This document shows, in pieces, positions 12,401-55,200 of a stretch of 64,000 nucleotides of DNA (position 1 is the stretch's first letter; each line of letters starts with the position of its first letter). The notes beneath the pieces were generated by a model. It searched no databases. It saw nothing but the letters and a program-made list of their open reading frames with translations, and was not told the origin of the DNA. Origin of the DNA: Somniosus microcephalus (taxonomy: Eukaryota); contig CM126204.1 of assembly GCA_052327205.1 (NCBI GenBank), forward strand, positions 38,316,001 through 38,380,000, written 5' to 3'. A program made the position numbers and the translations under genes.

Positions 12401-15400
12401 AGTTTCCTTTATTTAAACTCAGGACCCTAGTCTCTGAGTCAACTACTTCACTCTCCATCTTAATGAAGAATTCTATATTATGATCGCCCTGCCCAAAGGG
12501 GCCTCGCACAACAAGATTGCTAATTAATCCTTTCTCATTATAGAATACCCAGTCTAAGATGGCCTGGTCTCTAGTTGGTTCCTCGACATATTGGTCCAGG
12601 AAACCATCTCGTATACACTCCAGGAATTCCTCCTCCACAGTATTGTTACTAATTTGGTTAGCCCAATCTATATGTAGATTAAAGTCACCCATGATAACTG
12701 CTGTGCCCTTATTGCACGCGTCTCTAATTTCCCGTTTAATGCCATCCCCAACCTCCGCATTACTGTGTGGGGGTCTGTATACCACTGCCACTAATGTTTT
12801 CTGCCCCTTGGTATTTCTCAGTTCTACCCATACAGATTCCACATCATCAGAGCTAATAACCTTCCTTACAATTGTGTTAATCCCCTCCTTAACCAGCAAT
12901 GCTACCTCACCTCCTTTTCCTTTTTGCCCGTCTTTCCTGAATATTGAATACCCCTGAATGTTGAGTTCCCAGCCTTGGTCACCCTGGAGCCAAGTTTCCG
13001 TAATCCCAGTCATATCATATCAGTTTACCTCGATTTGCGCAGCTAATTCATCCACCTTATTACGAATGCTCCTCGCATTAAGACACAAAGCCTTCAGGCT
13101 TGTTTTTTTTTGTTTTTTTTTTTTAAAAACACTCTTAGGCCTTTTAGAATTATTATTTACTGTGGCCATGTCTGATTTAAACCCTTGATTTCTCCGACTG
13201 CCACCTTTGCTTTTCTCCTTCCTGTCTTTTGCTTCTATCCTTGTTTCCCTTACCTCTGTCTCCCTGCTCAGGTTCCCAACACCCTGCCATTTTAGTTTAA
13301 ACCCTCCCCCAGAGCACGAGCAAACACTCCCCCTAGGACATCGGTCTCGGTCCTACCCAGGTGCAAGCCGTCCAGTTTGTACTGGTCCCACCTCCCCCAG
13401 AGCCAGTTCTATAATAAGCAGGATAATGTTCCTGACAGATAACCACTGCCACTATTTCAGACCTGCCCCATCCCTTATGTAAAGTATTCCCAGTATACCA
13501 GATGGGATTCTGTTACTGATTGCCGTATATAAGCTGTATCTTGAAAGTAATACAAACTCCAAAATTTGGACTCCTTAACAGGGAAGAAAGGATACCTTTG
13601 CTGTGAGAATTTGCACATTCTGGCTCCAACTTGGCAGCCTACCAGGATTCTGTAATAGGATTCATGTCTGGCAGGCACCTTAGTCAACCCTGAATAAATT
13701 GGTCATCACCTGAGTGGGTTGGTTGAGAACTATTCTACTTTGAATTCAAGTAACCCTGGGAACTTTCCCTGTTTGCTATGCGGGTTTCACATTTTCTATG
13801 GTATGAGGAAAAAAAAAGAAACAAGCAAAAAATAATTTATAGAGCTGATCAATTGATTCTGGTTCTGCCTCACAGATAAAATGGTTTATTATGTATAAAG
13901 GAACAAAAATGAAGCCATCTGTCTGTAAAATACATGAAGCCTATTTTTCCTTTAAAATACAGCCGCAGACAATAGCTATTGGTACAGAAGGCTAGCTGAC
14001 TATTTTGGAAAGTTAATTTGTTTCTTTTCAGGGGCTGGGAACAGAATGGGGGGCGAGGGGGGCACAGATCCTAAGTCCCAGTCTCAACCGTGCTGAGTGG
14101 AGAACACGTTTTGGTCAATGTGACACTCACTGGAGTTTAGAAGATTGAGAGGGGATCTCATCGAAACCTATAAAATTCTGTCAGGTCTGGACAGACTAGA
14201 TGCAGGAAGGATGTTTCTGATGGCCGGGGAGTCCAGAACCAGGGGTCATAGTCTAAGGATAAGGGGTAAGCCATTTAGGACTGAAATGAGGAGGAATTTC
14301 TTCACCCAGAGAGTGGTGAACCTGTGGAATTCTCTGCCACAGAGGGCAGTGGAGGCTAGTTCATTAAATATATTCAAGAAAGAGTTGGATATATTTCTTG
14401 AGGCTAAAGGGATCAAGGGATATGGGGAAAAGGCAGGGACAGGGTACTGAATTTGGATGATCAGCCATGATCACATTGAATGGTGGAGCAGGCTCGAAGG
14501 GCCTACTCCTGCTCCTATCTTCTATGTTTCTATGAATGTGGTAGAAGCTGTAATTCAACCAGAATCAGTTGTTCATTTCGATTATTCTTCCAATAAACAG
14601 CAGTGGTATTGAAGTGATTAAACCTTTCCATAAGCTTCAGAGTCCTCAAATTTCTTAAACTGTGCAATCATACTAGACAGCAATGGATCAGCTGCCAAAA
14701 ACTGTATGTAACAAGTGAAATTAACCACCTGTAGAGATATTAACTATGAATTTGTAAAATGACTGTGCAATAAAGGATTTAAACCAGGCCTGCACTACTT
14801 CCATGGCTTTACTGATCTCGACAGAATTGAAACTCTCCATTTGTGCAAATCCATGTTCATAAGGAGGTAGATTATAAGCCAATGTCAAATTATAGAACAA
14901 TCTGCCCACCACGACTATGCCGATGCTAGATCAGATGGTGTTTCCTATTCCAACTCCATTTCCCTATCCTTTCCCCATATCCCCTCACATTCCTCCTTAT
15001 CTTAAATTGTTGTAATTTCTGCCTCAATAGCCACTTATGAACTTTGTGAATTTTTAAATCTAATTTTCCCCATTGTTCCAGTGATCATCTTAATTTTATG
15101 CCCCCCCCCCCTTTGTACCAATTCGACAACCAATTGAAATAATGTTTCACAAAGTTTTCATAATTTGAAAACCTCCACTAGATTCCCTTTTAACGTTCTC
15201 TATTGCAGTGTAAAAGCCCCACTATTTTGAGCCTTTCAAGTCATCATTCAGAATATTTACAGTTTTGTACTCATTCTTAGTTACTAGCCTAGTCGAATCT
15301 TGCATGGTTCAGATTTAAAAAAATAAAATGATGCACGTTAATGAAGCTAACTGGTTAAGTAATGGGAGGTTTGAAATAGATCCCAAATCCGTTCTGAAAA

Positions 15401-18400: not shown

Positions 18401-21400
18401 TCCAGCTTTTGTTAATCTTACTAACGCACTATGTTGCGCAGCAAAAAAACACACCCTGGTGGTGAATTCAAGTATGTAAACAGAAAAGTACGGACTGCAC
18501 TGGCTTTGAACGCCATGTAAACATTGTATGTGAAGCACATCCAGAAAGTTTTAACCTAGATCCTAGTGGGCATGACTATGCAGCACAAAACTGGAGGGGG
18601 AGGGTGAACAGCAAGCTGTCGTGGTGCATATAGGTATCAACGATATAGGTAAAAACCTGGATGAGGTCCTAAAAGCTGAATATAGGGAGTTAGGAGGTAA
18701 ATTAAAAAATAGGATCTCAGGATTGCTACCAGTGCTAGTCAGAGTAGAAATAGAAGGATATTGCAGATAAATACGTGGCTAGAGGAATGGTGCAAGGGGG
18801 GGGAGGGATTCAAATTCCTGGGACATTGGAACCGGTTCTGGGGGAGGTGGGACTCGTACAAACTGGACAGTTTGCACCTGGGCAGGACCGGGACCGATGT
18901 CCTCGGGGGAGTGTTTGCTAGTGCTGTTGTGGAGGGTTTAAACTAAAATGGCACGGGGTTGGGAACCTGTGCAGGGAGACAGAGGAAAGGGAAGCAAGGA
19001 TAGAAGCAAAAGACAGGAAGGAGAAAAGCAAAAGTGGAAGGCAGAGAAATCAAGTGTGTAAATCAAACAGGGCCACAGTAAACAATAATTCTAAAAGGAC
19101 TAAGTTTTTAAAAAACAAGCCTGAAGGCTTTGTGTCTTAATACGAGGAGCATTCGTAATAAGGTGGATGAATTAGCTGCACAAATAGATGTAAACGGATA
19201 GGATATAATTGGGATTACGGAGACATGGCTCCAGGGTGACCAAGGCTGGGAATTCAACATCCAGGGGTATTCAATATTCAGGAAAGACAGGCAAAAAGGA
19301 AAAGCAGGTGGGGTAGCATTGCTGGTTAAAGAGGAGATTAACAAGAGTAAGGAAGGATATTAGCTCTGATGATGTGGAATCTGTATGGGTAGAGCTGAGA
19401 AATACCAAGGGGCAGAAAACGTTAGTGGGAGCTGTATACAGACCCCCAAACAGTAATGCTGAGGTTGGCGATAACATTAAACAGGAAATTAGAGACGCGT
19501 GCAATAAGGGCACAGCAGCCACCATGGGTGACTAATTTACATATGAATTGGGCTAACCAAATTAGTAACAATACTGTGGAGGAGGAATTCCTAGCGTGTA
19601 TACGGGATGGTTTCCTAGACCATTATGTTGAGGAACCAACTAGAGATCAGGCCATCTTAGACTGGGTATTATGTAATGAGAAAGGATTGATTAGCAATCT
19701 TGCACGAGGCCCCTTGGGGAGGAGCGATCATAATATGATAGAATTCTTCATTAAGATGGAGAGTGAAGTAGTTGACTTGGAGACTAGGGTCCTGAATTTA
19801 AATAAAGGAAACTACGATGGTATGAGGCGCGAGTTGGCTAGGATGGATTGGGGAACGTTACTTAAAGGGTTGACGGTGGATAGACAATGGCAAACATTTA
19901 AAGATCGCATGGATGAACTACAGAATTTGTTCATCCCTGTCTGGCATAAAAAACAAAAAAGGTGGTGCAACCGTGGCTAACAAGGGAAATTAGGGATAGC
20001 ATAAAATCCAAGGAGAGGACATATAAATTGGCCAGAAAAAGCAGCAAATCTGAGGACTGGGAGCAGTTTAGGATTCAGCAAAGGAGGACAAAAGGATTAA
20101 CTAAGAGGGGGGGAAATAGAGTATAAGTAAGCTTGCAGGGAACATAAAAACTGACTGTAAAAGTTTCTATAGATATGTGAAGAGAAAAAGATTGGTGAAG
20201 TCAAGCATAGGTCCATTGCAGTCAGAATCAGGGGAATTTCTAACTGGGAACAAAGAAATGGCTGACCCATTAAATACATACTTCGGTTCTGTCTTCACAA
20301 AGGAGGACGCAAATAACCTCCCAGAGATGTCGGGGAACATAGGGTCTAATGAGATGGAGGGAGGGAGGAACTGAAAGAAATCAGTATTTGTAGGGAAATG
20401 GTGTTAGAGAAATTGACGGGATTGAAGGCTGATAAATCCCCAGGGCCTGATAATCTACATCCTAGGGTACTTAAGGAAGTGGCCCTAGAAACAGTAGATG
20501 CATTGCTGGTCATCTTCCAAAATTCTATAGACTCTGGCACAGTTCCCATGGATTGGAGGGTAGCTAATGTAACCCCACTATTTAAAAAAGGTGGTAGAGA
20601 GAAAATGGGGAATTATAGACCGGTAAGTCTGACATCAGTAGTGGGGAAAATGCTAGAGTCCATTATAAAAGATGTAATAGCAGAGCACTTGGAAAACAGG
20701 GACAGGATGGGACAAAGTCAACATGGATTTACAAAAGGTAAATCGTGCTTGACTAAGCTACTGGAATTTTTTGAGGATGTAACTAGTAGAATAGATCAGG
20801 GAGAACCAGTGGATGGGATGTATTTGGACTTTCAGAAGGCTTTCGATAAGGTCCCACATAAGAGATTAGCATGCAAAGTTAAAGCACATGGGATTGGGGC
20901 TAAGGTACTGACTTGGATAGAGAACTGGTTGGCAGACAGGAAGCAAAGAGTTGGAATAAACGGGTCTTTTTCCGAGTGGCAGGCAGTGCCCAGTGGGGTA
21001 CCGCAAGGCGACACAAAGCCAGGTGGGCGTGTGTGCTGTGGGGAGGATGACAAGAAACTCCAGTATGATTTGAACAGGTTGGGTGATTATACTGCATCTG
21101 CCCAATGTGGATAAATGCGAGGTTATCCACTTTGGTGGCAAAAACAGGAAGGTAGATTATCTGAACGGCAATAGATTGGGAGAAGGGGAAGTGCAACGAG
21201 ACCTGGGTGTCCTTGTGCACCAGTCGCTGAAGGTAAGCGTGCAGGTGCAGCAGGCGGTTAAGGCGGCAAATGGTATGTTGGCCTTCATAGCGAGAGGATT
21301 GGAGTACAGGAGCAAGGATGTCTTGCTGCAGTTGTACAGGGCCTTGGTGAGACCACACCTTGAGTATTGTGTGCAGTTTTGGTCACCTTATCTGAGGAAG

Positions 21401-22182
21401 GATGTTCTTGCCATGGAGGGAGTGCAGCGAAGATTCACCAGACTGATATCTGGGATGGCAGGAATGATGTATGAGGAGAGATTGGGTCGATTGGGCTTAT
21501 ATTCGTTGGAGTTTAGAAGAATGAGAAGGGGTCTCATTGAAACTTATAAAATTCTAACAACAGGACTTGACAGACTAGATGGAGGAAGGATGTTCCCGAT
21601 GGCAGGGGAATCCAGGACCAGGGGTCACAGTCTAAAGATAAGAGGTAAGCCATTTAGGACAGAGATGAAGAGGAATTTCTTCACCCAGAGAGTGGTGAAC
21701 CTGTGGAATTCTCTACCACAAAAGACAGTTGAGGCCAATTCATTAAATATATTCAAGAAGGAGTTGGATATATTTCTTAAGGCTAAAGGGATCAAGGGAT
21801 AGGGGGAGAAGGCAGGGACAGGGTACTGAATTTGGATGATTAGCCATGATCTCATTAAATGGCAGAGCAGGCTCGAGGGGCCGAATGGCCTACTCCTATC
21901 TTCTATGTTTCTATGTTTATCCATATGACAGAAAATAATCAGAAGTCACCAGAATGGCTGGTGTGGAAAATGGAAAACGGAGGGGGCAGGGAGGAAATGT
22001 CACACTGATGCAGAAAGCATCAGAGATTGATGATAAAGTAAGTTGTTCCAGCAGAGGACAGGGCACTTTGTTGCACACCTGGCTGTGGTACACTTGATGC
22101 CAACACTGGGTGCCTGAAATGGCGACGTGTTCCATTACTCAGCATCCACATTTCTCGTCTTGAGAACAATTATTATTATTGT

Positions 22183-25200: not shown

Positions 25201-28200
25201 GAATTTTAAAAATTGTTAGAGAAACACATGCTCAAAAGGAACCACTGAAAGCGTCAATTCATTTTTCATGAATTCCAAACTTTTCCATTGCAAGTCAATT
25301 TTTACTCCCACCGGAGAACAGGAACTTGACACTTTAATCCCCATTTTTGTTGCACCTTTAAACAGAGGGCAGTGATACATTGGAGTTTTAGTACTGAAAA
25401 GAAAGAAGAAGAGAGTTCCAATGCTGGAGCTCCAATATACCAAACATATGCCATTATTACTACAGGTAGACTATCCTTTATCCGAAAACCTTGGGACCAG
25501 CCGTGTTTCGGTTTTTGGAAAATTTCGGATTTCAGAAGGTATTTTATAAGACTGGGAAATTTGTCGGGGGTGGGGGGTCGGCGGGGGGGTGGGAGAAAAG
25601 AATATCGGATGGGCCGCTGTATTGTTGGGTTCACTCTCCCGGTACCTCCTTTACACTGCCCGGCTCGGCCTGCAATCTCCTACCCAGGAGGGAACTCTGT
25701 GACCCTCTGCCCTGCTCAGCGTAAGTCGTGCGCCACTCTGGTCATGTCGTGCGCGCGACTTACGCTGAATGAAAAAACTTTTCGGTTTTTGAGGGTTTCG
25801 GAAGTTCGGATAAAGGATAGTCTACCTGTACTGCAAATTGTTCTTTATTTTCAGAATATTCTTTTATTCCTGGGGACTTTGTGTTGCCAATACTAGCAAA
25901 CTTAACATTAATACGATTTCACCCAGCAAGAGTCACTCAAAGGCTAGACATGAAAGTGAAACTGTGTGAATAGGTACTACATGACAGAGAATAATAATAG
26001 ATTAACAGTCTTTTAAAGGCCCAAAGCCTTAAAAACAACCAAACGAGTTTAGTCATGTCCAAGACATGATCAATCATAACATTTAAATGGGAATTAAACA
26101 CAAAGAGGTTAAAAGGGCACAGGGAAAGAATAGGGGTGGGAAATAACAATCCTGTAGTGAGCGCTAGCATTAACACCGGCACGATGGCAAATGGCCTCCT
26201 TCTGTGCTGAAATTTATGATTCTTACAAAAGCATAAGATTGTGTTTGCCTACATTTATCATTTAAAGTTTTCTGCACCAAGAAATTTTGACTTATACAAT
26301 AATCTCAATTAAGCAACAGAAATAAAGTAGGAATATAATGTTAAAAATTGAATAATTAGATCATCTGAATTAAGCAACTTTGAAATGAAGGTTAGCAGCT
26401 GATACCAGAACCTCAAAGCATTTCTCAGCAAATCAAATGTGACTGTGTACAATTAAAGCAAATCGATGTATAAGTCTTATGGCACCTGTACCTTGTACGT
26501 ACTTAACTTGCTTGTATCATTGAACAGAAAGTCTAAGGAAGCCATCTAGTGGATGCATCACTACATTGTAAACCAGGAAACAGATTCCATTTCATTCACC
26601 TTTAACATGGACTGCTGGTTTAAGGTGACTGAATAAGACAAATTCTGCTTTTATTACAAAGATTCTTGAGATATTTAATCATGTTATGATATTACATTCA
26701 TTTTCCATTAAAAACCGTAAAAGTAAGTAGCCTGATCTATACTGTAATATACAAAAGAACTGCTTCGCCTGTAATTAAGGGCACTGGTTTACAACAAGTT
26801 AATAAATTACATTCTGTTTTTATTACTTGGGATTCCCAAGATTTTTTATTGAACGGTTTGTGAAGTCCACAAGCATGCTTGCATACATTCTGTTCACATT
26901 GATTGATTTATGTGCTCAATAGGGGTTACCCTGGATTTAAACAAAATATATTTCTACATTTAAAATCGCATGCTTCATTTGTAGAAGAAACCATGGACGC
27001 AATACAGCAGCTGGCAAACCAATACTAGAATTAAATGGCGCCGTTCTCACAGCAGCCTACAGACTCTTTTTAAACTGCACTTGTGAAAATTAGAACACAA
27101 ATTACAAAGCACGAGAGACTGGATCAATTCAAAGTAAAAAAATAAAAATTAATTTCAAAACAAATTCACTCCATCTGAATACGTCTAGAAACCCCCGCCC
27201 CCATAAAATCCCATGAAAGCAGTGAATGCGCAGTACCAGTGTTAAAAAGTCTCATTCACAACTTTTATATTAACTGACAAAAGACTAAAGCTAGAGTACA
27301 TGTTGCAAACTCAGGTTTGCGAGCCATAAAGACCTGTTTTAAAGTGTGACATATGCATTATACTAAAGTCGAGGCAGTCACGTTCAATAGATTAAGATAT
27401 ATATTTGCACTGAACATCTTGAGCTACTGACGTAAACAGCATGAGACACTTCTCACCAGTATCAATTTGATGAATTGGAGTACAGAGCTGAGATTGCTAG
27501 TCATTGCCATGTCAATGTGCTCCTCCCACCCTTTCTCCACTTGCACGATATTCTAAATATTACTGCCATTTCATTGTGTAAAGTGTACTCCTGAATACAT
27601 GTTTGCCCAAAGAAATTGTGCATTACTGTTACACCTTTGTTTCATGGCTGAACTCAGAAAACCTTAACTCTGTTGACAATGTCAATCAGTACTTACAGGA
27701 CAAGGAGAATGAAGAAACACAGTCACTTTCTCATCTTCAAGCATTAGCTGCAAGAAAAGCCTCCTGATAAATCCAGAAATATTTCCAGATGTTGGGACAT
27801 TTGGTCGCTGAGGTGTTGACTGGAATAATTCACACAGAACCTGAAAATATTTAAATATTAAAATAAAGTTATAGGTCTACTGCTATTTATTACTTAATGG
27901 TAATCTGACAACATTTCACACGATATTCAAACTTAATTCAGCAAAATACTAAAATACCAGTTATTTTAAACAGTGTTTAAATAAGTTATACAAGTGCCCA
28001 AAATAATCAAATCGAACAGAAAAAAGGTCATTAGAAATTCAGTGGTTTTCATGTAATACACGATGAAACTTACTGAACCGTTCTGGACGGTGCACAGCAG
28101 TTCGTAAAACAAATGATTAAAGTCAAAAGCAAAATACTGCGGCTGCTGGGAATCTGAAATAAAAACAGAAAATGCTGGAAATACACAGCAGGTCAGGCAG

Positions 28201-31200
28201 CATCCGTAGAGAGAAAGAGTTAACATTTCCGGTCGATGACCTTTCGTCAGAACGGCAGCTGTTGATTCTGCTATTCCCATTTACACCACCTCTTGACCCA
28301 TCTTTTGTTTCTTTACTTGTCCCATTACCATCTCCTTTTGCCTTGCACCCAGTTCTGATGAAATGTCATCGACCTGAAACGTTAACTCAGTTTCTCTCTC
28401 CACAGGTGCTGCCCGACCTGCTGAGCATTTCCAACATTTTCTGTTTTTATCATAAATAATTAAAGTACGGTTAGACAGCTGAAATTACCACTGCAGCTCC
28501 TTGAATGGCTCCGTGAGTTTACCGAGAGAGTAGCCAAGTCATACAAATCAGGAAGGTTCCAGTTACAGTCCTTAGGCAGTGTTGAAGGAGCTGATCTCAG
28601 TTGGGAAGGGGTCTCAGTAGTCCTGGACTATGGAGGGGCAAAATAAGCCAGGATTTCATAACTCATTGCCATTCAATGGCACTTGCTAGAAGTGCATGTG
28701 TTTGGATGTCAGCTCTGCTTCAGCATTCATAATTGAGGCTGGAAAATCAATAGTGGTTCACTTGGTGAGGTACTGAAAGGTTGCTGGCACATGTGGAATC
28801 GGCAAAGTCATGAGAAGGGAGGGAGGGTAATAAGTGATGGAAAAAAAGTCATCTCTGCAAAGTTTTCTCAGTCGTCTAAATAAATAAATGCACCATATAG
28901 TTTGTTATTTCACTTGAGAGGTGGGTCTGAAGATTTTTATTGCCTTGTAATTATTCCTACACTCTCCTGAAGGTGCTGTCCAGCAAAAATCAGTCTTTAC
29001 TCCTCCCTTCCAGGGGAAAAATGTGTGAACACAGCTTAACAAGTAATTCTAATTATTTTTATAAATAATTTTTCAATAAACTGGGTAAAAACATTAGTTG
29101 CAAATACAGAGTTATTTTCCAACCCCATTTTAGTCATATCCACATGCTTCAGCTACCCACTGGACAAAGTCATTCAGCCATCAGAAATGCTTAAATTAGG
29201 TTTAATAAAATGGTTCAAATGCAATATTGACATTACCTGAGCCATTAATTTTTGATTGTTTGGATGGCAAGAAATGCACTGCAAGAAGAATGCAACAGTT
29301 GAATTTTCAATTGCTGTTCTTTGTTGAGTGGTCAGTCCTACCCCTGCAGGCGAGGAGGCTGAAGGAAGGTACCTTGATCCAATATGTTGGGACCCATTGT
29401 GGTGGTGGTGTCCAGCGCTGCTGCTGCTGGAATGGCACAGCAAGAACAAGAGAGCAGTCCACAAGGGGTTTACTTCAGGTCCCCCTAACCAGTCCTTCAT
29501 GGTGTGGCTGTTGCCTACTTCAGTTAGAAATCGGAGAACAGGAGCCACCAGATCTGCCGTGAGGGGAACCTTACTGATCGCACGCAGCTGCGAATGGTGC
29601 CTCTTGTTTCTGTCCGTGGCAACCTCTGCAGAAGGCACTGCACCATCCAAACTGGAAATATGATTGAAGCAGAAACTGATTAAGCTTTTCACAAGCATAG
29701 AAGGTAAACTTGACTCCAGGAGCTGTTTAATAGCTTCTGGAGATTGGGTTGCTGCTGCAAGAGTAACGAGGTGAGATTCATTTAGTGCAATCGGTGCCTG
29801 TGCATTTTTGGAGTCATCTGTTAAACCAGAATCCAAGTCCTCTTTCTTGCTATCATCAGTCATTGAAAGTCTGTGCTGCATTTGCATAGGAGGCAGAGTA
29901 ATGCCCATCCAACCCATCAGCAATGAAAAGTAGCTCGGATGAATGTGACACATGGAACATAGCAAACTGTCTACAGCTTTCTTCAGAACCATGTTGCAAG
30001 GAAGTGACATGGACCAATTATACAGCAATCTAAAAAAACAAAATTTATAATTACCTCAGCACAAGGATGAAGTCATTCTGGTGAAATAAATACAGCTGCA
30101 GCACAGAAACTTAAAGATTCGAATTTGCAAGCACAACTACTGTATTTAAAGGCACATTAGCCCACGTAATCACTGGAATAATACAAAGTGCAAAAGCATA
30201 AAAAGCTATACATTTAACAGTAGGATAGTGCTCAAGAGGCTGGGTATTCTCAGTACAAAGTACTCTTATGTAGTGCAACACTGTAAAAACCTCCAAGGGG
30301 AGATATCCTAACTTTGGAGTATTCTATTCCATCCCACCCTCCCCAAACAATACAAACCTATAATTTCATGTCTCCCCTCACACCCGTGAGGTGCTCCAAT
30401 GATGCACGGTGCAGGTGTGCCCGGGAGCAGATAAATAAGGAAACCTAGGAATCAGCATTTGAGACGGGTGTTGTTGCCAATCTAGAGCAAGTCACTTACA
30501 TGAGACCTCTCATCACTGTTCCAATAGTGAAAGTTTCCAACATAAATTTGGGATCAGTAATAGGATATTGGTTGGACCTGCTGACAAGGACTTCCTGATA
30601 TTGGCCCTGCTGTTGGGACAGCTGTTGAACAGATGGATGTGTGTCATCGTAACAGGACACAGGATCTGGAAACAATTTGCCTACTCACAACCTTAGCCAG
30701 AAAATGGTACAGAGGAAGCAAAAGGGTGATACATTGCTCTCTCTTCCATCTGCAGACTACAAAGTTAAGTTGATGATGCCCAATACTCTTTAAAAATTGA
30801 ATTTGTATCCATCACCAGATCACATCCTCTGGTGGCAGATCTGCAGGATCTTCAAGGTCTACAATTCCATAATTTCCTAATTTTTAATTATTTTCAAATA
30901 ACCTATAAATTCATAAAAGATAATACTCATGTAAACAGAAATCACAAAGAAACAATGAAACAGTAATCAAAATTTGTTTCTAAATTAAAACCATGAAACA
31001 CTTTGTGAACATTCTACTTACTCAAACAGTTCTCTGTTTAGTAAACCTGGAAGATCATACTCTACAGGTAACTCATAGCTATGCCACAGGACAGCAGCTA
31101 CACAGTGCAAGTGAGAAGGCGATGGCATAAGGAGGCCATACTCGCGAGTTATGTTCTCTGTATTTACAGTGGCAATGTGGCCAATTCTCTTTAGTGCAGC

Positions 31201-40200: not shown

Positions 40201-43200
40201 CAAAAAAAAAAAAAGTTTCTCCTGCTCGGTCCTAAATCTCATAGCTCTATTCTTATATTTTTGCTCCCTTACTCTAGATAATTCAACCATTGAAAACAGC
40301 CTGTTTCTACCTTGTAGCATCCGTTCATATCACCCTATAATCTTATTTTGGATTTCCAGTAGTAGTATTTTGCTTTTGTCACTTATAATCTCTGTTCTGA
40401 AGAAAACAGCTGTAATTTTTCAAGTAATTTCTTCATATTTGTATGTCCTCATTCCAAGCAGCATCCTGGTGACTTTGCGCTATACCCTCTGTTTCCTCAA
40501 CATAGAAGATAGGAGCAGGAGTAGGCCATTCAGCCTCTCGAGTCTGCTCCGCCATTCAATGAGATCATGGCTGATCATCCAAATTCAGTACCCTGTCCCT
40601 GCTTTCTCCCCATAGCCTTAAGAAATATATCTAACTCCTTCTTGAATATATTTAATGAATTGGCCTCAACTGCCTTGTGTGGTAGAGAATTCCACAGGTT
40701 CACCACTCTCTGGGTGAAGAAATTCCTCCTCATCTCTGTCCTAAATGGCTTACCTCTTATCTTTAGACTGTGGCCCCTGGTTCTGGACTTCCTCACCATT
40801 GGGAACATCCTTCCTGCATCTAGTCTGTATAGTCCTGTTAGAATTTTACAATTTTCAATGAGATCCCCTCTCATTCTTCTAAGCTCCAGCAAATATAAGC
40901 CCAATCGACCCAATCTCTCCTCATAAGTCATTCCTGCCATCCTAGGTATCAGCCTGGTGAATCTTCGCTGCACTCCCTCCATGGCAAGAACATCCTTCCT
41001 CAGATAAGGTGACCAAACCTGCACACAATACTCAAGGTGTGGTCTCACCAAGGCCCTGTACAACTGCAGCAAGACATCCTTGCTCCTGTACTCGAATCCT
41101 CTCACTACGAAGGCCAACATACCATTTGCCTTCTTAACCGCCTGCTGCACCTGCATGCTTACCTTCAGCGACTGGTGCACAAGGACACCCGGGTCTCGTT
41201 GCACTTCCCCATCTCCCAATTTATCGCCATTCAGATAATAATCTGCCTTCCTGTTTTTGCCACCAAAGTGGATAACCTCGCATTTATCCACATTATACTG
41301 CATCTGCCCAATCACCCAACCTGTCCAAATCATACTGGAGTTTCAACATCCTTCCTATAGTGCGGAGCCCAAAACTGCACACAGGAAGACCCCAGTTAGA
41401 GTACTAAGGCTTTATGCAGAGTCACCATTGCATTCAACGTTTATGTTCTATGCCTCTGGTTATAAAACCTAGTATCCCATTAGCTTTTTAAAAAAAAAAT
41501 GGCCTTATCCATTTAAGGTGCTGCTTTTAATATCTTGTGTACCTGAATCCCTCTGCTCTTGCACATCACCTGACCTCCAAAGCTTTCATTACTTTTATTT
41601 CTTTAAACCAAAATTTACCAGCTCACATTTACGGACACTGAATTCCATCTGCCACTTTTTGTTCATGCCACCATTTTATCAAGATCCCCTTGCAATTTCC
41701 TTTGTTCCTGAATCATTTATTTAAATTCCTAGTCATGGACTCCTCAGCAACCAAAGCTGATCACTTTTAATGAATTTAGGCTCCACCTCGACATAGACTT
41801 CCCATCAAAGTCCAAGTTTAAAAAAAAAAATGGAAATACCTACCTATTATCATTGCCATAGCATTGCTATTGCACTGGCCCAAAGCTGAAAGAATCTGAC
41901 TCATGATTTGCTGATTTCCCAGTACCAAATCAGCAATACAAGTTGTTGCGCCCTGTGTAAAGGAGGCGCTTGCGTTCCCATCTTTACTGCCGGAGACCTT
42001 TTCCTCATCAGACACGCTGTCCGAGGCACTGCTGGCAACGGGCATCCTGGCACTGTACTCTCGGTTACTCGAAAGGGGCAACTGCACCAAAATGTTAACC
42101 AGCTTCAGCAGATCAAACATGAGCTGATCCCTTGTCGTCTCCCCACATACGGCTTTCACATCACCTGGACGGATGATATTTGCAAACAGTCCACCGAAAC
42201 AAGCACGGGCACCAACCGAATTGTCAGAGCCACTTCGAGATATAACCTTGTCCGAGCAGGTAATGTAATGGTGCACCAAGAAAGTCACCGATTCGATGAC
42301 CGCAGAGATTGCGCTGACAGAAACAGACTCAAAGTTTTGCTCCAGTGTAAACTCCAGGAGTTTTACTTGCGCATCCAGCGGTCCTTGCCCGGTTTGGAAC
42401 GGGCCTCTGGAGAACATGTAAAGTTAAAAAAATATACATATTTTACAACTCATGATTTGACAGGATTAAAATTTATCACCAATTGTTATCTAGCAATTTT
42501 TTTTTTTTAAAAAGCAATCGTGCAACAGTTACACAACACTTGAGATGAAAAATCAATGTGTTTTTAATCAAGGTGAAAACATATATAGGAGCAATATGCT
42601 TTCACGTGAATTAGGTCAGTCTTTCTAAACCTACATGGCACTTGCGGCGCTTTCAGCCGGAGATTATTTTTCTTATTTTTTGGATCTTAACGATTGCACA
42701 CTGGATAGTGCTGCAGACAGAAGCATCTACTTTGACAGCTTGGCTAGGTAGTAGTACTCTCTCCACCGAGTAAGAGGATTTGAGAGTTCAAGCCCCTCCA
42801 GAGACTTGAGCACATAATCTAGGCTGACACTTAAGTGCTGCACTGTTGGAGGGGGTCATCTTTCAGGTCAGTCATGAAACTGAGGGCCCATCTGCCGATT
42901 CAGGTGGACATGAAAGATTCTGTGGCGTTATTCAAAGAGCAGGGTAATCTGGCCAATATTTATCCCACAACCAAAAGTAACTGGTCTCCCCTCCCTATCT
43001 CGGTCATCTCCTCCAGCCCTACAAGCCTCCGTGATCTCTGCTCTCCTCCAATTCTGCCCTCTTGTGCATCACCAATTTTAAATCGCTCCACCACCGTGCC
43101 TTCAGCTGTCCAGGCCCCAAGCTCTGGAATTCCCTCCCTCAACCTCTCCAGTTCTCTTTCCTCCTTTAAGATGCTCCTTAAAGCCTACCTCTTTCCTGAC

Positions 43201-46200
43201 CGAATACCTCATGTGGCTCGGTGTCAAATTTTGTTTGATAATGCTCCTGTGAAGCGCCTTAGGACATTTTACTAAGTCAAAGGCGCTATATAAATGCAAG
43301 TTCTTGTTACATTATCTCCGTGCTGTTGGTGGGTCCTTGCTCAGCACAAATTACTGCGTTTGCCTCTAACACACCAGTGACTCCACTTCAGAAACAAACT
43401 CATTGGCTGTGACACGCTTTGGAATGTTCTGAGATACATTAATATAAAAGGGCAAGTTCTTTCTTTCTTGGGCTTGGCAGAAGAAAGAGCAGCAGAGAGT
43501 AGTGAAATATTGTCTAATCATTTAAAGATTCAAATTCATATTAACTAAAAGGACAATTTGAAGAGCAGGTAACATTTTACTCAATTTAGACTCAAATTCT
43601 AAATTCATACCTCCCAATAATGCCGCCCCCCCCCCCACCTCAAGAATCCACCTCTAATATCGGACTGCCATTCCTTGGCCCGCCTAGTTAGTGTCTGTAC
43701 CATCAATCCCCAGCCTGTCTGCTGCCATTTATCCATTTATCAGTTACTGGAATCCAGCGTTGCTTCCTTTTGAGTAGCAAACATTGAGGAAACACTAACG
43801 GTAAGGCTAACCCAGGCTCCACAATACAAGTAGAAAGGCTACATTAACTATAGTGAGGCCAGTTTAGAAGCGGAGACAGCTATGACTCATAGTATCATTC
43901 CCTTGCTTTTTCTCCCTCAACAGGAACCATCGCCAAGTCCCTGCACCAGCAACAATTGGGGAACTAAATGTGGCACTGCAAGGGAATATAGCTTAATACT
44001 TCTAAAGTATGGTGAAAATAATGCTGTAAAAATAGGAGTAAACTTTTGTCAGGTATTATCATACAAAATTATCCACTGTATTTCAGTACACTGGGGAAAC
44101 ATTTCAAATCACTAAGTGAATGTTTAATCACTGCTTTCTGAATAAAGAATTCATTTTAACAAAAATTTCTTTTTGTTATAATAATGTGTCAGCCTTGGCT
44201 TAGTGGTGGCACTCTCGCCTAAGTCCGTAGGTTGTGGGTTCAAGTCCCATTACTGTAAAAATTTGAGCACATAAACTAGGCTGACACCCCAGTGCAGTAC
44301 TAAGGGAGTGTTGCACTGTTGGAGGTGCTTTCTTTCGGATGAGACGTTAAACATCCTCTCGGGTGGATGTAAAAAGTCCCATGCACTATTTGAAAAATGG
44401 GGGAGTTCTCTCCTACATCCTGGCCAGTATTTATCCCTCAACCAACATCACTACAACAGATTATCTGGTCATTTATCACATTGTTGTTTTTGGGTCTTAG
44501 CTGTGCGCAAATTAACTGTTGCATTTCCTACATTACAACAGTGACTATATTTTCTTTTAAAAAGTACTTAACAGGCTGTATAGCGCTTTGGGACATCCTG
44601 TGGTCGTGAAAGGTGCATTATAAATGCAAGTATGTTCTTTCTTTCTCTAATTTCAACCACAATGGAAAAAGATCCCTTTTTTAAAAACGTTAGCACTAAC
44701 ATGGAGTGTTAAATCCGTCTCATCGCACATTTTTAGAAGTTTCTGTTACCTTTCAGTTGAAAGTATGTGTATAAGCTTTAAAAGGAATTCACTGAACATT
44801 TGAGGATTGGTTGAGGAGAGATGCACTTGGAGTCGAGTGAGAAACTCTTGCATAGCTTGAGTAGCTGTAGGTCCAACCTGAAAGACAAAAAAAAAATGAA
44901 ACCTCTAAATATAATTTGAAACTTGAAACTTGAAATGTAATTTCATTAAATCCCAAAACTGCATCTGCAAAAAAATCACCCTGGTATTGTCAAATTAAAT
45001 TTATGCCATAGATGACGGTCACAGTATGAATGTACCACCGTGTTCAATAGAGACAATTCACTGAATGCTATTACGTACTTCTTTTGCAACTCCAGTCATG
45101 GGAACACCATCACTTCCAAGGACCCCTCCAATTACACACTATTGAGTTGGACATGCATAGTAATTCCTTCATCACTGGGTCAAAATCCTGGTTATCCCAT
45201 CTCACAAAACATAGTGGGAACACCATCAGTAAAAGGACCGTAACAGCTCAAGAAGGTAGTCCACCATCATCTCAGGGCAACTAGGGACGGGCCTCATGGA
45301 CAATAGGAATGCCAATGGCAAACGGTAAAGGGGTGGCGGGGAGGAAATCCAGCCACAGTTCCTTCCCCAGATTGCGTCCAGCAATCTCTGCTGGAAAGTG
45401 AGCTTGTGTGCACATTAGGATCAAGCTTGGTTGTGACATCTTCCACAGCCAAATAACCAGACAACACTCACTACCTTTGCTCACATATGAAGAATGGCAT
45501 TTGTTGGAGGTACCCGTTATTTTACCTCAACAAGGAGTCAATGGTTTCAGGAAGATGGGGAAGGGAGAGAATTGGAGAAACATCAGAGAAAATGGGTGAG
45601 AATGAATACTCCACCCTTTACTTTTGTTCTATCCTGCTCTTCCTTCAATGTTCTCTCCTTGTAGTAAACACCATCTACCAGAAGGAGCTCTTCTGATAAA
45701 CAACCCTCAAATTTGGCAACTTTTTCAAAGAATAAGCTCCGGATGTTCTCCATGGCTTTTTTGATTATTTGAAAGTGAACAACTTGTGTTAACATTTGTG
45801 ACATCTGTATGTCAAACTAATTTTGGGTGTCCACTCAAAATATGGCCAAATACAGGTTTTGTGTCCGAAATAGTTTCAACACTCAACTTGTAGAGGTCAG
45901 ATCTACACTGAAACCAAGCATCCATTACAAGATTTATTCATGCACATTATGACATAAACACTGAGTGAGGGAGGTTGCAAAAACAAGTCTTCAGGGTCAG
46001 AATAGCTGCTGTTCACACCAACTGTGCTGGGCTGATGCAGAGGGAAGCTGTACTACTGCGAAAAGTCAAATCAATAAAAATGTGGGACTTAAATTGTGTG
46101 TAGAGCAAAAAAAAGAAATATCAATCTTTGCCATAAAAGGCACTGCAAGTGAATGTCCTGGATTAACAAACCCAAGAAAACCAGGGCAGTGAAAAGTACT

Positions 46201-49200
46201 TATTTGTTTTCTTCGCCTTCGTATGGCAAATATCGAAAAACTGGGTGAGTTGGAATGCACACCTGTAAAAGGAAAGCAGGCCAGGCAGCATCCGTGGAGA
46301 GAGAAACCGAGTTAACGTTTCAGGTCTGGGACCCTTCATCAGAACAGACCTGAAAACATTAACTCTGTTTCTCTCTCCACGGATGCTGCCTGGCCTGCTG
46401 AGTATTTCCAGCATTTTCTGGTGTTATTTCAGATTTCCAGCATCCGCAGTATTTTGCTATCGTAAAAAGCACGCACCTGGTTTGCCTTCCATTAATTTAA
46501 ATGAAAAGAATATTGGGCGGGTTCCATTACAGGTGTGCACTCTGACCCATCAGATAGCCTGATATCTTCTGTACCCATCTTGGCAATCCAGTGCGCATCT
46601 TGGCACAGACCCAAGAAAATCTTCCCTCGAACCTTGCCAGCTGAATCCGTTGTTTTCAATACTGGCAGCTACAACAGTGCAGCTCTGGCGACACCACCAG
46701 CTCCTAGTGCTGTACTGAAAGCCCCGCAGTATTTACATCTTTTGAATGTAACCTGGTAGTGCAGCAGATTAGCACAAGAATGACGCATGACAAACTGACT
46801 TCCTTACTTAGTTCCACTGGGATGCATAACCAGTACAATGGTTTAAATGGTCCCAACATTACATGGACTGCAGTTAGCCATAGCTAAGTGAAGAGCATTT
46901 ATACTCCAAAAGAGTTCACAAATGTCTTCTTGATTAAATCAACACTCACCTTCACTGAAAATGAGCAGGGATAAAACTGGTCAGTCGGCATCTCAAAGTT
47001 CAAGCCTGCACAAAAAAGGTCATAAAGTCCTCCTTTCGATCTTTTCTACAGACTACTCCCAATGAGTTGAAATATCAGGTGGCAATATTTCCATTCATTG
47101 AAATAAGATTACGGCAACTTTACCTTTTAAAGCTGCAGAGTGCATCATACGGAGTATGAGGGGCTTGTCCTAATCTTGGTGATCTTACATGGACAAACTC
47201 AAACAATTCATTGTTGGATTGCACAATCCAGTATTGTAGCTCATTATGCTTCCTCTGTGCACAGCAGTGTCCCATTGCCTTTCCAAAGTTCTCAATCAGG
47301 CGCTATCACCATCAAAAGAACAAAGGTCCCTCATTCATACAATCAATACCAGCCCACAGACATAACGAAACAAACAATGATTGTAGTGGAGAGGTTGGGA
47401 ACATAAACTCTTGCCTTCACTTTCAATGATAACATTTCAAACAACACAACCCACAATAACTCTGCTGTTGTGAGAAGACACCAAGTAGAGGCCAAGAACC
47501 TCCTCTCCATTGGAGGGAGGAAAGAGTAGTCGGTCATCCCCAAACTAGTCTTGTTTGCCCCTAATCAGCCAACTTCAGAACAGCACTGAAGACAGCCTGG
47601 AAGCAGATCATCTGCCTGAGCTGAAGATCCAAGGGTTAGGGAAGAGAAAGAACTTAAAAGTCTCACAAAGAAAAGGCCATAACATCAGAAAGAATCCAAG
47701 TTAACAGAAATTTAAAAGAAAATTAGACAAACGGGTAGACAAAAATTCAACAATACAGAGAATAAACGAAGGAGCAATTGTCAAATTGCCACTTGAATCC
47801 TCAAACAGATCAGAAATTTAGGTTAAAAATGAAAATGGGAACAATGCATTCTAATAGTTTTTTCAACAAATACATTTCACAAACTGTGATAAATTAAGTA
47901 CCTGTGGGCTGTGTTGACAAGTGCCGTGAGGGCTGGTACCAGAGAAGAATCTCACTAATACGTGAATCATGTTTGGATCGGACACCATCACCTGCGCTGT
48001 GTTTTCTTGCAATACCATACTATTGCTTGGAGCAACTGCAACAGAAATACAGTCTACGATAATGTTGTTGTTGATGTCGTCTTCTTTAAGTGAGGTAAGC
48101 AATTTCTGTACTACAAATGCTACATTTAAGGAACTACAATTACATTGAATTGAACTCTTTGTAAAATTAAAATGGAAATACAGCAAGAATATAAGGCATT
48201 TATTTTACATAATGGTGCAAATGCCCTGTATTTCCCCTTGGTTTAAATTTGAGGTTCATAAATTAAAGTCTATTCTAATTTGCCAAAAAGAAGTGAACAA
48301 TGGGCTAAAACCAACTACGAAAACCCTGGAATGATAAAAATTTCAGGTTCCTATTGGAAAAGATCAAATTAAACTTCCTATCACACTCAGGAGAACATTA
48401 AGATAGTTTCAGTATTTCTTTTGTCCCCCAGTCGGTACACTACACCTCACCTGTACACCGTTAAACACAACACCTCTCTCGCTGGTCAAGCTTTCAACTT
48501 CCGCCACAATTCCTACTGTCATGCCCTTAGTTTCTGCATCTTGCCCCTTCTTTCTTATTGGTCAATCATCCGGTCACTTGCATGCATTCTTTACTTGTTG
48601 CAATCTCTACGCTTTCCTTTACTTCTACAGAATTGGAAACCAAGGGGAAGACCTGGGTCAGAAGACTGGAAGGTTGCCTTTTGCGTGGAGCTACTAATCA
48701 GAAACCCTCCATTCTCTGCCTTAGCTTTCTCCTCCATTCTGCTCAGTTTGTCCCCAGCCCATTTAAGCACCCTTCGCAATTTTCTGTTTAGCGATCGTAT
48801 AGCAGCCGAGGCCACAACTCTCATATCACATTAACGTGGCGTTGTTTTAAAAATCTAAATGTTAATGTACATTTCAGCACTGATGCACAACTTGGGAAAC
48901 ATTTGTTTATCTAAAAATATGCAGCCAGAACTTGCAAGATTCCAGCCACCACTTATTCATAATTTTAATTTCCTCTTGGAACACCCACTTATGCAATGCA
49001 AATGAAGAGAGATTAAGTGATTAAAAGGACAGGTTGACGCCTGAACGGTCAAAGTTAATTTGTAAGTGTTCACAATTACACAAAATTAACAAACACTGAT
49101 TTATTTTAAGGAGTGTAGGTCTTAAATCTTTATAAACAGAACCATATTTTGACACAGCAACAGGCTATTCAGTCTAGCAAGTCTGCACCAGTGTTTTGCT

Positions 49201-52200: not shown

Positions 52201-55200
52201 CTACCTGTAGGTGATGTGTTAGTGAGAGCCTGAAGAATAGAATCAGCTTCCAGTGTAGCCATCATCTTCAACATAAGCTCAGCTTGCTGCTCCAAACCAA
52301 CCTCCAGACGGGCATCCAGCGCTGCACCACAAACAGAACCAAGGAAAGTTACTTGCTTTTTCTGCTAGCTTGCAGCATTAAAATGTAAAAAAAAAAACAC
52401 TCGTGAAACATACAAACCTTGAGACACGGAAACAGATACACTTTGAGATCCATTCTTCTCGCTGGCAGGCGGTGGTTTTGGCATCTGAATTCCAACGCCA
52501 CCAATATAAGGATTATAACTGTAAGTGCCATAGTCGGTACCCCAATAGTCATACCAAGTACTGCTAATAGGCTTTTGTGAATAAAAAAAATAAAATGTTT
52601 AATAGCAACACTAATCTGTTTAATGCTCATTCTACTACTTCCAACATGTTACTCAAAATGACGGCATAATTCATGAAGCAATAGAATGTTTAAATTTAAA
52701 GAATTCAAACTAAATGTATATATGCGGTATCCAATAGACGAAGGCTGAAATAAAGCAAACCCATAACTGTTATACAAATGATCCAATTGAAATTACCCAA
52801 GTTGTCTTTATTCTTTATATGTCCTTAAATTATGTTGTCTTGGGCTCGCAAATACAACTGTAGCCCAAATTTATGAAACCTATGAAACATACATATACTC
52901 CAATTCCAAAAAAAATTCTAAAGCATAAGACAGATAAAACAGAGAATGAATGCACTTACAAGGATAAGTACGCCAAGAGCCATAAAGCGCCAGAGTGGCT
53001 CGTTTTAGATTTTTTATCAATTGAATTTTTTTTTTTTTTTTGACAATTTACAAGAAAAACGGGAGGGACAAGGGGAGGATAGGGTTACAAAAGAAACACC
53101 TCACACTGCCCAAGGCAACACAATGAAAGTCAATTTCGCCAACATTAACCAGAACAAAAATTAGTTTTGCATGCAAAGATAAAATTCAATTGTGCGTACT
53201 ATACCTTGAACACTTTGGCAGCAAGGGGATCTTCATCAAAGTCAACATCTAGGGGACCAATATCAACATCCATGAGGTCTTGTAGCATGTCAAAGTCTTT
53301 GTCTTTATCTTTTTCCAAAGATGATGCAGATGGAGCACCTTTGGATGATGAAAACAGCTTTAACATTGCCAAGTATGTTAACTAATGTATGGAACTGGAC
53401 CACATACACTCACCAGGCAATTTTAAGGCTGTGCTTTTTTTTCTTAAATTTATAAAATAAATACTGACAGTACAACATATTCTTTAAAATTAATAAAAAA
53501 GGACAACCTATTCACTTTTCTCCTTACAAGTCACTTACCTGTAATATCCGGGGTCAGGGGCTCATCTATAGACTCCACGAGTGGAATTACAGATGGCTGT
53601 GGCAGGGAATCATCAGTGTCAGCTACTGATGTTCCTACATCTTCACCAACTGCTCCTTCTTCCATGGTCTCTACAGCTACTGGTGACAACAGCTCACCTG
53701 TACACAGTTTAAAAAAAAAAAAAAACATCGCAGTAGGTTACAACTTTTAAACAATTTTTTTTTTTTTTTTTAAATAAGTACTTGCTACCTGCTCACACAG
53801 TACACAAAAATCCAACACAAAAACCTGCAACACTGGCTGAAATTGGAGTATCAGAAAAATTCAAATGCTGGAAGTCTGAAATAAAAAACAAATTCACAAC
53901 AGGTTGATCAGCATTGGGAGAGAAAGACGGTCAACACTCGGACAGAGTATTTCAACTCCATACGCTGATTGACCTTTTGCATATTTCCAATAAGATTGGC
54001 CAGTGTGAAGAAGCACATTATCACATCAGTATACTATTGTACTCGTAGCATTAATAACCACTAGTTACTAAACTAATTCACTAACATATCTGCTTACAGA
54101 AAATGGTGGACAAAATTTGGCAATGCAGACATTTACTGTCATTAGTTCTCAGTTTACTTACAATGTAAAAGTTTAACAGGTGTGTAAAAGAAAATATAAG
54201 CCCAACAGCATCCATGCAAGTACAATAAATCTAACCAACAGTCCAGCATAATGACTATTTGCATCATTTGACAAATAGGTTCATATTAACTGCCATTAGC
54301 ACCTGACATTGCCAATTAGATCATGATTAGCAAAGACTCAAAGACCAATCAGATACACCCAAAAGTCTATTTTGGGTCATTCGCTGAAAAAAAAATTAAG
54401 ACTGGAATAAAAACAAAAAAATGCTGAAAACACTCAGCAGGCCAGGCAGCATCTGTGGAGAGAAACAGAATTAACGTTTTAGGTCAATGACCTGTCAGGA
54501 CTGGCGGGGCGAGGGGCAGAAAGGGGGGGGGGGGGTGAGGGAGGAGTGAGAGTGCAAATGTGAGCAAGGAGAGAGAGAAAAGTTGGGGAAAGAGAGCATA
54601 AATAAGCTCAAAGAAAGGTTTACAGCCAGATGGTATGTTGGGAGACAGCTGAGATTCCAATCCTGATCATGACATGCCAAATGCAGCCAACCTTCGACAG
54701 GAGAAAAACATTTTACACGCAATATGCGTATGTCTACACATCCCCACACACATGCACGGCAGTAAAACTAGCCTTTTGGGCAACATTTCAACACTGTTCT
54801 CACACAAATGTTTAGTACACAAGAACACTGGGGATGCAATTTGAGAGGAGGAAACACTTGCGGTATAATTTCTTGCTACCTACCTGCCAAGATATCTTGA
54901 ATCATGCAGGTCAAAGAATATTGTGCCCATGCTCCACCCCAGGAGATGTCTCCCCTGTTGAAGTCTGTTCCGACCAGTAGAAGCAGAAGTCTTTCTAGCT
55001 GCTGCTCATTAACTATTTCACAAAGATGAATCGTTGGCCTTGTAGCATTTGCAATACGTGCGAGAACCTGCCGAGAAAGTTCAGAAGTTCATTTGGCGCC
55101 ACCGCATAATGCCCACGGCAGAGCCCAGTAGGCGAGTCAGTCCATTTACAGATAGCAAGTACATTACCTCACGTACATTTTCTAAAAGTCCAGTACTAAA

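Follow-up and report, generated by a model that had tools for sequence, protein, structure and literature searches.

The minus strand of an intron of BIRC6 in Somniosus microcephalus carries a minimal hammerhead ribozyme core next to an inverted copy of the same repeat. The structure, 186 nt long, is very probably a dead insertion made of two head-to-head stubs that come from the pLTR of an abundant Penelope-like retrotransposon (PLE), with a hairpin that is predicted to bury the hammerhead and a likely absence of any regulatory job. The hairpin over the core is likely a by-product of the insertion and not a gene switch, since the same gene also carries copies that are not blocked. All coordinates are positions in the window, i.e., the whole 64,000-nt stretch that was analysed (38,316,001-38,380,000 of its contig in a 6.4-Gb genome), and sites outside it are given relative to the window.

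The host gene, BIRC6, lies on the minus strand. The exon at 41827-42420 matches the PDB entry for BIRC6 (E 1e-98), and the exons at 48033-47899 and 44880-44749 stand on either side of the insertion. The intron between them (44878-47901, minus strand) is about 3.0 kb long, with its GT donor at 47901 and its AG acceptor at 44878, and the insertion sits in mid-intron, about 1.4 kb from either splice site. Arm B of the insertion (46275-46345, minus strand) covers pLTR positions +1 to +71, where +1 is the first G of the hammerhead core; its first base lies at the front edge of stem I, and it is 98.6% identical to a native copy. Arm A (46346-46460, plus strand) covers +19 to +132 at 95.7% identity to a native copy and is 5'-truncated inside stem II. 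The Penelope "tail" of about 30 nt (46430-46460, plus strand) is found on arm A only. A possible gapped target-site duplication (TSD) encloses both arms on the plus strand. Its left half (46265-46278) overlaps the end of arm B by its last 4 nt, a microhomology, and its right half (46462-46471) is 4 nt shorter; the ungapped score of 7 lies inside the control range. Contigs from two DNA runs pass from the unique flanks into both arms, so the head-to-head structure is real and an assembly artefact is ruled out.

Other copies of the family are present in the window. A second head-to-head pair in BIRC6 (28125-28450) has two damaged cores about 100 nt apart. Two further sense copies on the minus strand have broken cores, at 1393-1520 by a small deletion at the cut site and at 54402-54504. 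The two sense cores of the window that are intact or nearly so each have an inverted partner upstream. Long LINE frames with endonuclease and reverse transcriptase (RT) pieces, which we take to be of CR1/L2 type, were also seen in BIRC6 introns at 10418-13019 (minus), 19426-21799 (plus) and 40578-41342 (minus). To the left of the window, an apparent BIRC6 intron of 45 kb runs from -46,907 to -1,294. Just past the 5' end of the gene, minus-strand exons at +165,653 to +176,641 are presumably EXO1-like.

The hammerhead core occupies 46311-46345 on the minus strand, which is the BIRC6 sense strand. An earlier sequence-only reading had reported this core, and its letters were found to be exactly as given there, with the predicted cut after GUU, between 46314 and 46313. 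The core consists of a 3-bp stem I, CUGAUGA, one unpaired A, a 5-bp stem II, GAAA and the palindrome ACGU. The boxes CUGANGA, GAAA and UH stand in type I order, and the palindrome (15.2-16.2) replaces helix III. The minimal hammerheads of PLEs, as described by Cervera and De la Pena (2014, PMC4209133), are alike in their CUGANGA and GAAA boxes, in the unpaired nucleotide between 9 and 10.1 and the G at 10.1, in the palindromic 15.2-16.2 and the short helix I, and in their thousands of dispersed truncated copies. They also occur as opposite-strand pairs, which lie 100-700 bp apart, whereas the partner arm in BIRC6 abuts the core. Further differences from that description are the 5-bp helix II, the shortening of stem I to 3 bp by the junction, and a U at 11.1, which makes the 10.1-11.1 pair at the base of stem II a G-U wobble, here and across the family pattern, where the conserved form is G-C.

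In the hammerhead search that had been suggested for the locus, the Rfam profiles returned no hammerhead family up to E 10, as expected for a form without helix III, and the miRNA and IRES matches that Rfam did return were driven by the hairpin, scored below the gathering threshold and were rejected. Exact matches to the 35-nt family pattern number 8,503 across the genome and 0 for the reversed control, so the core is not a product of chance. Among the first 30 core loci listed, 22 are letter-identical to the BIRC6 core. Introns of amniotes harbour domesticated hammerheads (RECK and others, PMC6155905) that are likewise of type I and on the sense strand. These are described as canonical, single-copy and conserved across classes, whereas the BIRC6 ribozyme belongs to a young repeat of high copy number, has a minimal core and shows no sign of being conserved at its locus. 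The canonical helices I-III and the activity as a monomer that mark the domesticated group are not matched by a core with a 3-bp stem I, no helix III and no hit in Rfam.

The parent element can be recognised from copies elsewhere. Native copies have a pyrimidine-rich stretch ending in CCAG before the core, and at 17 of 30 loci an endonuclease-type ORF ends 146-322 nt upstream of it. All three ORFs tested with Pfam gave a GIY-YIG match (E 3.5e-4 to 8.5e-4), at 20-21.3 bits against a curated cut-off of 22.6, and no RT match. By eye, the upstream ORFs contain YIDD and Q..G..MG motifs, and at five ORF loci a C-x4-C-xx-C linker precedes the endonuclease. A CX2-5CxxC linker between RT and endonuclease is a mark of Neptune elements and is common to Nematis (PMC8557442). 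Judging from the upstream ORF ends, the weak GIY-YIG matches and the RT motifs and linker seen by eye, the core appears to be the pLTR hammerhead of an endonuclease-bearing (EN+) PLE, Neptune-like by motif. The earlier identification as a Penelope-type minimal hammerhead is borne out by the position of the repeat just downstream of a GIY-YIG-type ORF. A MITE or DNA-transposon palindrome was considered and rejected: the point from which the arms diverge is a retroelement 5' junction, and elsewhere their sequence lies downstream of RT-EN ORFs. The BIRC6 copy is 96-99% identical to a high-copy subfamily, which argues for its youth.

No full pLTR-ORF-pLTR copy was seen, and the single locus that was extended is a 5'-truncated head-to-head pair. 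A young head-to-head Penelope pair at G000:C1:18,593,023-18,604,442 has 1.4-kb arms of 98% identity that include flanking DNA past the pLTR ends; the pair is broken up by an LTR retrotransposon that has long frames of gag-pol-like type. A second hammerhead family, with other stems and an AGCU palindrome, also forms a head-to-head pair in a BIRC6 intron, at window-relative -35,760 (about 38,280,240), with both cores intact and about 7 nt apart; the same family was seen in fibrillin and LTBP introns on both strands. In native copies, the ATG within the CUGAUGA box (window 46339 onward) opens a frame that runs through the tail and stays open for 42 codons. In the native pLTR, two standard consensus motifs coincide at the front edge of the ribozyme, namely an initiator-like CCAGTT and a 3' splice acceptor made up of a pyrimidine tract and CAG. 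The 5' ends of copies pile up at that edge, and no common upstream exon is visible. In Drosophila Penelope, an intron end at helix I has been described (PMC4209133).

The claimed hairpin of about 53 bp was confirmed. Its arms at 46275-46327 and 46346-46399 align over 54 columns, with 33 perfect pairs followed by 2 mismatches and 1 gap, and in the minus-strand RNA a G-U wobble forms at one of these mismatches. The hairpin folds at -104.3 kcal/mol (z = -16), and none of 200 shuffles was as good. It had also been proposed that the antisense arm is made first during BIRC6 transcription and could trap the ribozyme, and the arm is indeed upstream on the BIRC6 sense strand. According to folding prediction, the cost of imposing stems I and II is 27.0 kcal/mol when the arm is present, even if the transcript stops just beyond the core. 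Without the arm it is 3.5-5.1 kcal/mol, and two unarmed BIRC6 copies in their own context pay 4.4-6.4 kcal/mol. The arm is predicted to sequester the 3' strand of stem II, GAAA, the cut site and stem I. To that extent the trap proposal stands, whereas the roles in tolerance and switching that were attached to it have found no support. What the sequence-only reading overlooked is that the repeat to which the core belongs is present twice, the arm being its second copy (arm A, in antisense on the BIRC6 strand), which runs on to 46460. RNA reads were uninformative on cleavage, splicing and A-to-I editing, as 89-94% of those on the intron diverge from the locus, i.e., come from other copies, and the depth on flanking exons is 0 in one read set and below 2 in another; no accumulation of read ends at the cut site was listed.

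The need for such a trap was examined in six genes (1.17 Mb in all), namely BIRC6, TTC27 and four fibrillin/LTBP genes, of which an internal stretch of 200 kb each was taken. BIRC6 spans at least -99,365 to +117,604 relative to the window, with tblastn support to -46,907 and +63,360; its outer exons were assigned by motifs that we take to be diagnostic, and TTC27 was presumably recognised correctly on the same kind of motif. The strand of the fibrillin and LTBP genes was set by their TB and EGF exons. Family copies were found 32 times in sense and 26 times in antisense (p=0.51). Only seven cores are strictly intact, four in sense and three in antisense, and the BIRC6 insertion core alone is armed. 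The remaining three strict sense cores, of which BIRC6 contains two (window-relative -81,509 and +71,784), are without an inverted copy within 19 kb. Stem I has 4 bp in all three, and the insertion copy lost the fourth of these pairs at the junction. A relaxed, family-independent scan of 16 cores placed an arm within 3 kb of 4/8 sense and 2/8 antisense cores (p=0.61), in a small sample in which two insertions count on both strands and two of the sense arms are 1.9 and 2.5 kb off. Unarmed sense cores with a 4-bp stem I in BIRC6 thus number two by the strict and three by the relaxed definition. Unshielded sense hammerheads in introns of the same gene mean that no antisense trap need be invoked. 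There is no sign that a trap is needed, and its necessity is excluded by these observations; intact unarmed sense intronic cores, the very case that would speak against the proposal, occur within BIRC6 itself.

The reading in which an active ribozyme is tolerated in BIRC6 only through trapping by the arm, the pair forming a switch, is accordingly extremely improbable. It can draw on the upstream position of the arm on the sense strand and the predicted trapping of the fold, on the lean of the relaxed count, and on the occurrence of the insertion in both DNA runs, which carry different organism labels (one is perhaps the source of the assembly). Set against these are the unarmed BIRC6 cores, the lack of sense depletion, the non-significant arm difference and the missing stem I pair. 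A lock of 27 kcal/mol would not be plausible as a reversible switch. Moreover, an inverted copy within 1.5 kb upstream was found at 10/30 random intact cores, none nearer than 225 nt. A search of the openly readable literature turned up nothing that bears on a trap or switch reading of such hammerheads.

Weak purifying selection is a milder alternative, under which unarmed intact sense cores would be mildly harmful and somewhat depleted and armed ones over-represented in introns, with no switch. The direction of the relaxed count leans slightly towards it, as towards the sequence-only reading, and Xenopus tandem retrozymes are reported as under-represented in introns (bioRxiv 10.64898/2026.07.22.740005). 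The counts of intact cores and of all copies given above go against it, and so does the strand-skew proxy. T-over-A skew, a weak proxy for the direction of transcription, is +0.057 in BIRC6 and near zero in the fibrillin genes; it is -0.007 at fold-back loci (28 of 29 used, 14 of 28 positive) and -0.015 at plain loci (21 of 30 used), i.e., without sense bias. Such selection is possible but improbable.

Such cores are likely tolerated in BIRC6 with or without an arm, since a minimal hammerhead cuts only with the help of a second copy close by or of the protein of the element. The nearest intact sense partner within BIRC6 is 25 kb distant. Cleavage by a single minimal hammerhead was described as undetectable (PMC4209133), and cleavage as a dimer was reported by Lunse et al. 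(2017), as cited in a review (PMC6765202). In the Anolis element, the hammerhead is silent without the protein, and uncleaved RNA is the main substrate (PMC11167929).

The locus is an ORF-less head-to-head Penelope pLTR insertion of a kind already known. An inverted 5'-truncated copy with a one-sided tail of 30-40 bp is typical of PLE insertions (PMC8557442; PMC3846280). The arm has a plain origin in this respect, being the usual inverted pLTR of such insertions. Tight head-to-head junctions were searched for as a pattern and found at 59 places in the genome (control 0), with many different junction letters. The first 30 of these pattern-chosen loci, the BIRC6 locus included, were analysed. 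A TSD score of at least 12 was obtained at 21/30 junctions and at 0/90 mispaired controls. The tail end (+132 to +134) is present on one arm only in 25 of the 30, on both in none and on neither in 5; an inverted 5'-truncated copy with a one-sided tail is seen at the BIRC6 locus and at 25/30 junction loci. In 22 of the 25 tail-bearing junctions the short arm ends at +91 to +106; the BIRC6 short arm (B) ends outside this range, at +71, where 4 nt match the flank. Of the 25, 18 have the tail on the 5'-truncated arm, BIRC6 among them. In these, each arm has sequence absent from its partner, so that neither can have been simply copied from the other. Finally, 29/30 intact arms end between +1 and -2, where the pattern would have let them run further (p ~1e-6 under a uniform model).

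The ends of copies were also surveyed in an unselected 1.86 Mb containing 96 copies. For 5' ends, 18 copies whose upstream sequence matched that of another copy were dropped. The 78 that were kept start at -5 to +5 in 19 cases (two of them internal deletions, one being the BIRC6 locus), at -99 to -6 in 7, at +6 to +28 in 15 and beyond +37 in 16, and 21 extend past -100. No start at the cut site (+29 to +37) was found among the 96 copies. Their 3' ends cluster, with 49 at 90-110 and 33 at or above 127.

With confidence just short of even, the tight stubs may be regarded as an in vivo footprint of the formation of inverted PLE ends, in which two staggered nicks would both serve to prime on uncleaved pLTR RNA. 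For one nick the priming site would always be the tail end and for the other an inner site, and the RNA would start at the initiator-like CCAGUU, at the first hammerhead base. The protein of the element would nick the two DNA strands at points about 12-15 nt from each other. At one of them, reverse transcription would be primed at the tail end of uncleaved pLTR RNA, and at the second from the inner site, which as a rule is +91 to +106 and here is +71 on the 4-nt microhomology. One cDNA would reach the apparent 5' end of the RNA, which is the front edge of the ribozyme, its counterpart would halt in stem II, and the two would then be joined. PLE protein has been reported to cut and extend both strands, with two RT start sites (PMC11167929).

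A different origin of the arm in the same element, by self-priming fold-back on an antisense template or by later deletion of a spacer between distant inverted copies, is rather unlikely. The antisense-template form is the proposal of Arkhipova (2013, PMC3846280), who argued for self-priming on the basis of palindromes at junctions. The two arms of a junction usually share subfamily-specific letters, and long head-to-head pairs with 98% identical arms exist, both of which fit this origin. Antisense-template self-priming may also be compatible with the junction counts. Fold-back of a sense cDNA, in contrast, cannot give arms that each hold sequence lacking in the other, as in the 18 junctions above, and random spacer deletion would not give intact arms that stop so uniformly at +1 to -2. 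At two junction loci (L079 and L100), the arms differ in stem II loop letters beside the junction, which hints that one insertion may have drawn on more than a single RNA, namely on two different ones.

Compared with known systems, the locus resembles complex EN+ PLE insertions (Arkhipova 2013, PMC3846280; Craig 2021, PMC8557442) in its head-to-head inverted copy, in the tail at one end only and in the TSD that most sister loci have. It differs in having no ORF, only two stubs and a degenerate TSD of its own, and the TSDs of sister loci are 12-15 nt long, compared to 8-10 bp in the rotifer EN+ insertions described there. As in the Poseidon element PAc of Anolis (Frangieh 2024, PMC11167929), the ORF frame opens at the hammerhead (in Anolis at stem II), two preferred 3' ends bracket the tail, and copies derive from uncleaved RNA. 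Unlike PAc, the parent element carries the C-x4-C-xx-C linker before the endonuclease, a Neptune/Nematis mark and not one of Poseidon. A search of the openly readable literature for Penelope hammerheads of sharks turned up nothing relevant, the word "shark" appearing solely as part of the name of the fold.

As a feature of BIRC6, the insertion hardly matters, being one of thousands of such stubs. It provides a useful negative, namely that sense-strand minimal hammerheads stand unshielded in introns of the same gene. The family is of wider use: its hundreds to thousands of dated insertions offer material for reading the unsettled integration of Penelope elements, including the one-sided tail, the 12-15-nt TSD and the start of the RNA at the ribozyme. 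If the dual-priming account is true, the stub footprint would favour it over the published self-priming proposal, and the ribozyme would be uncut in the RNAs that retrotranspose.
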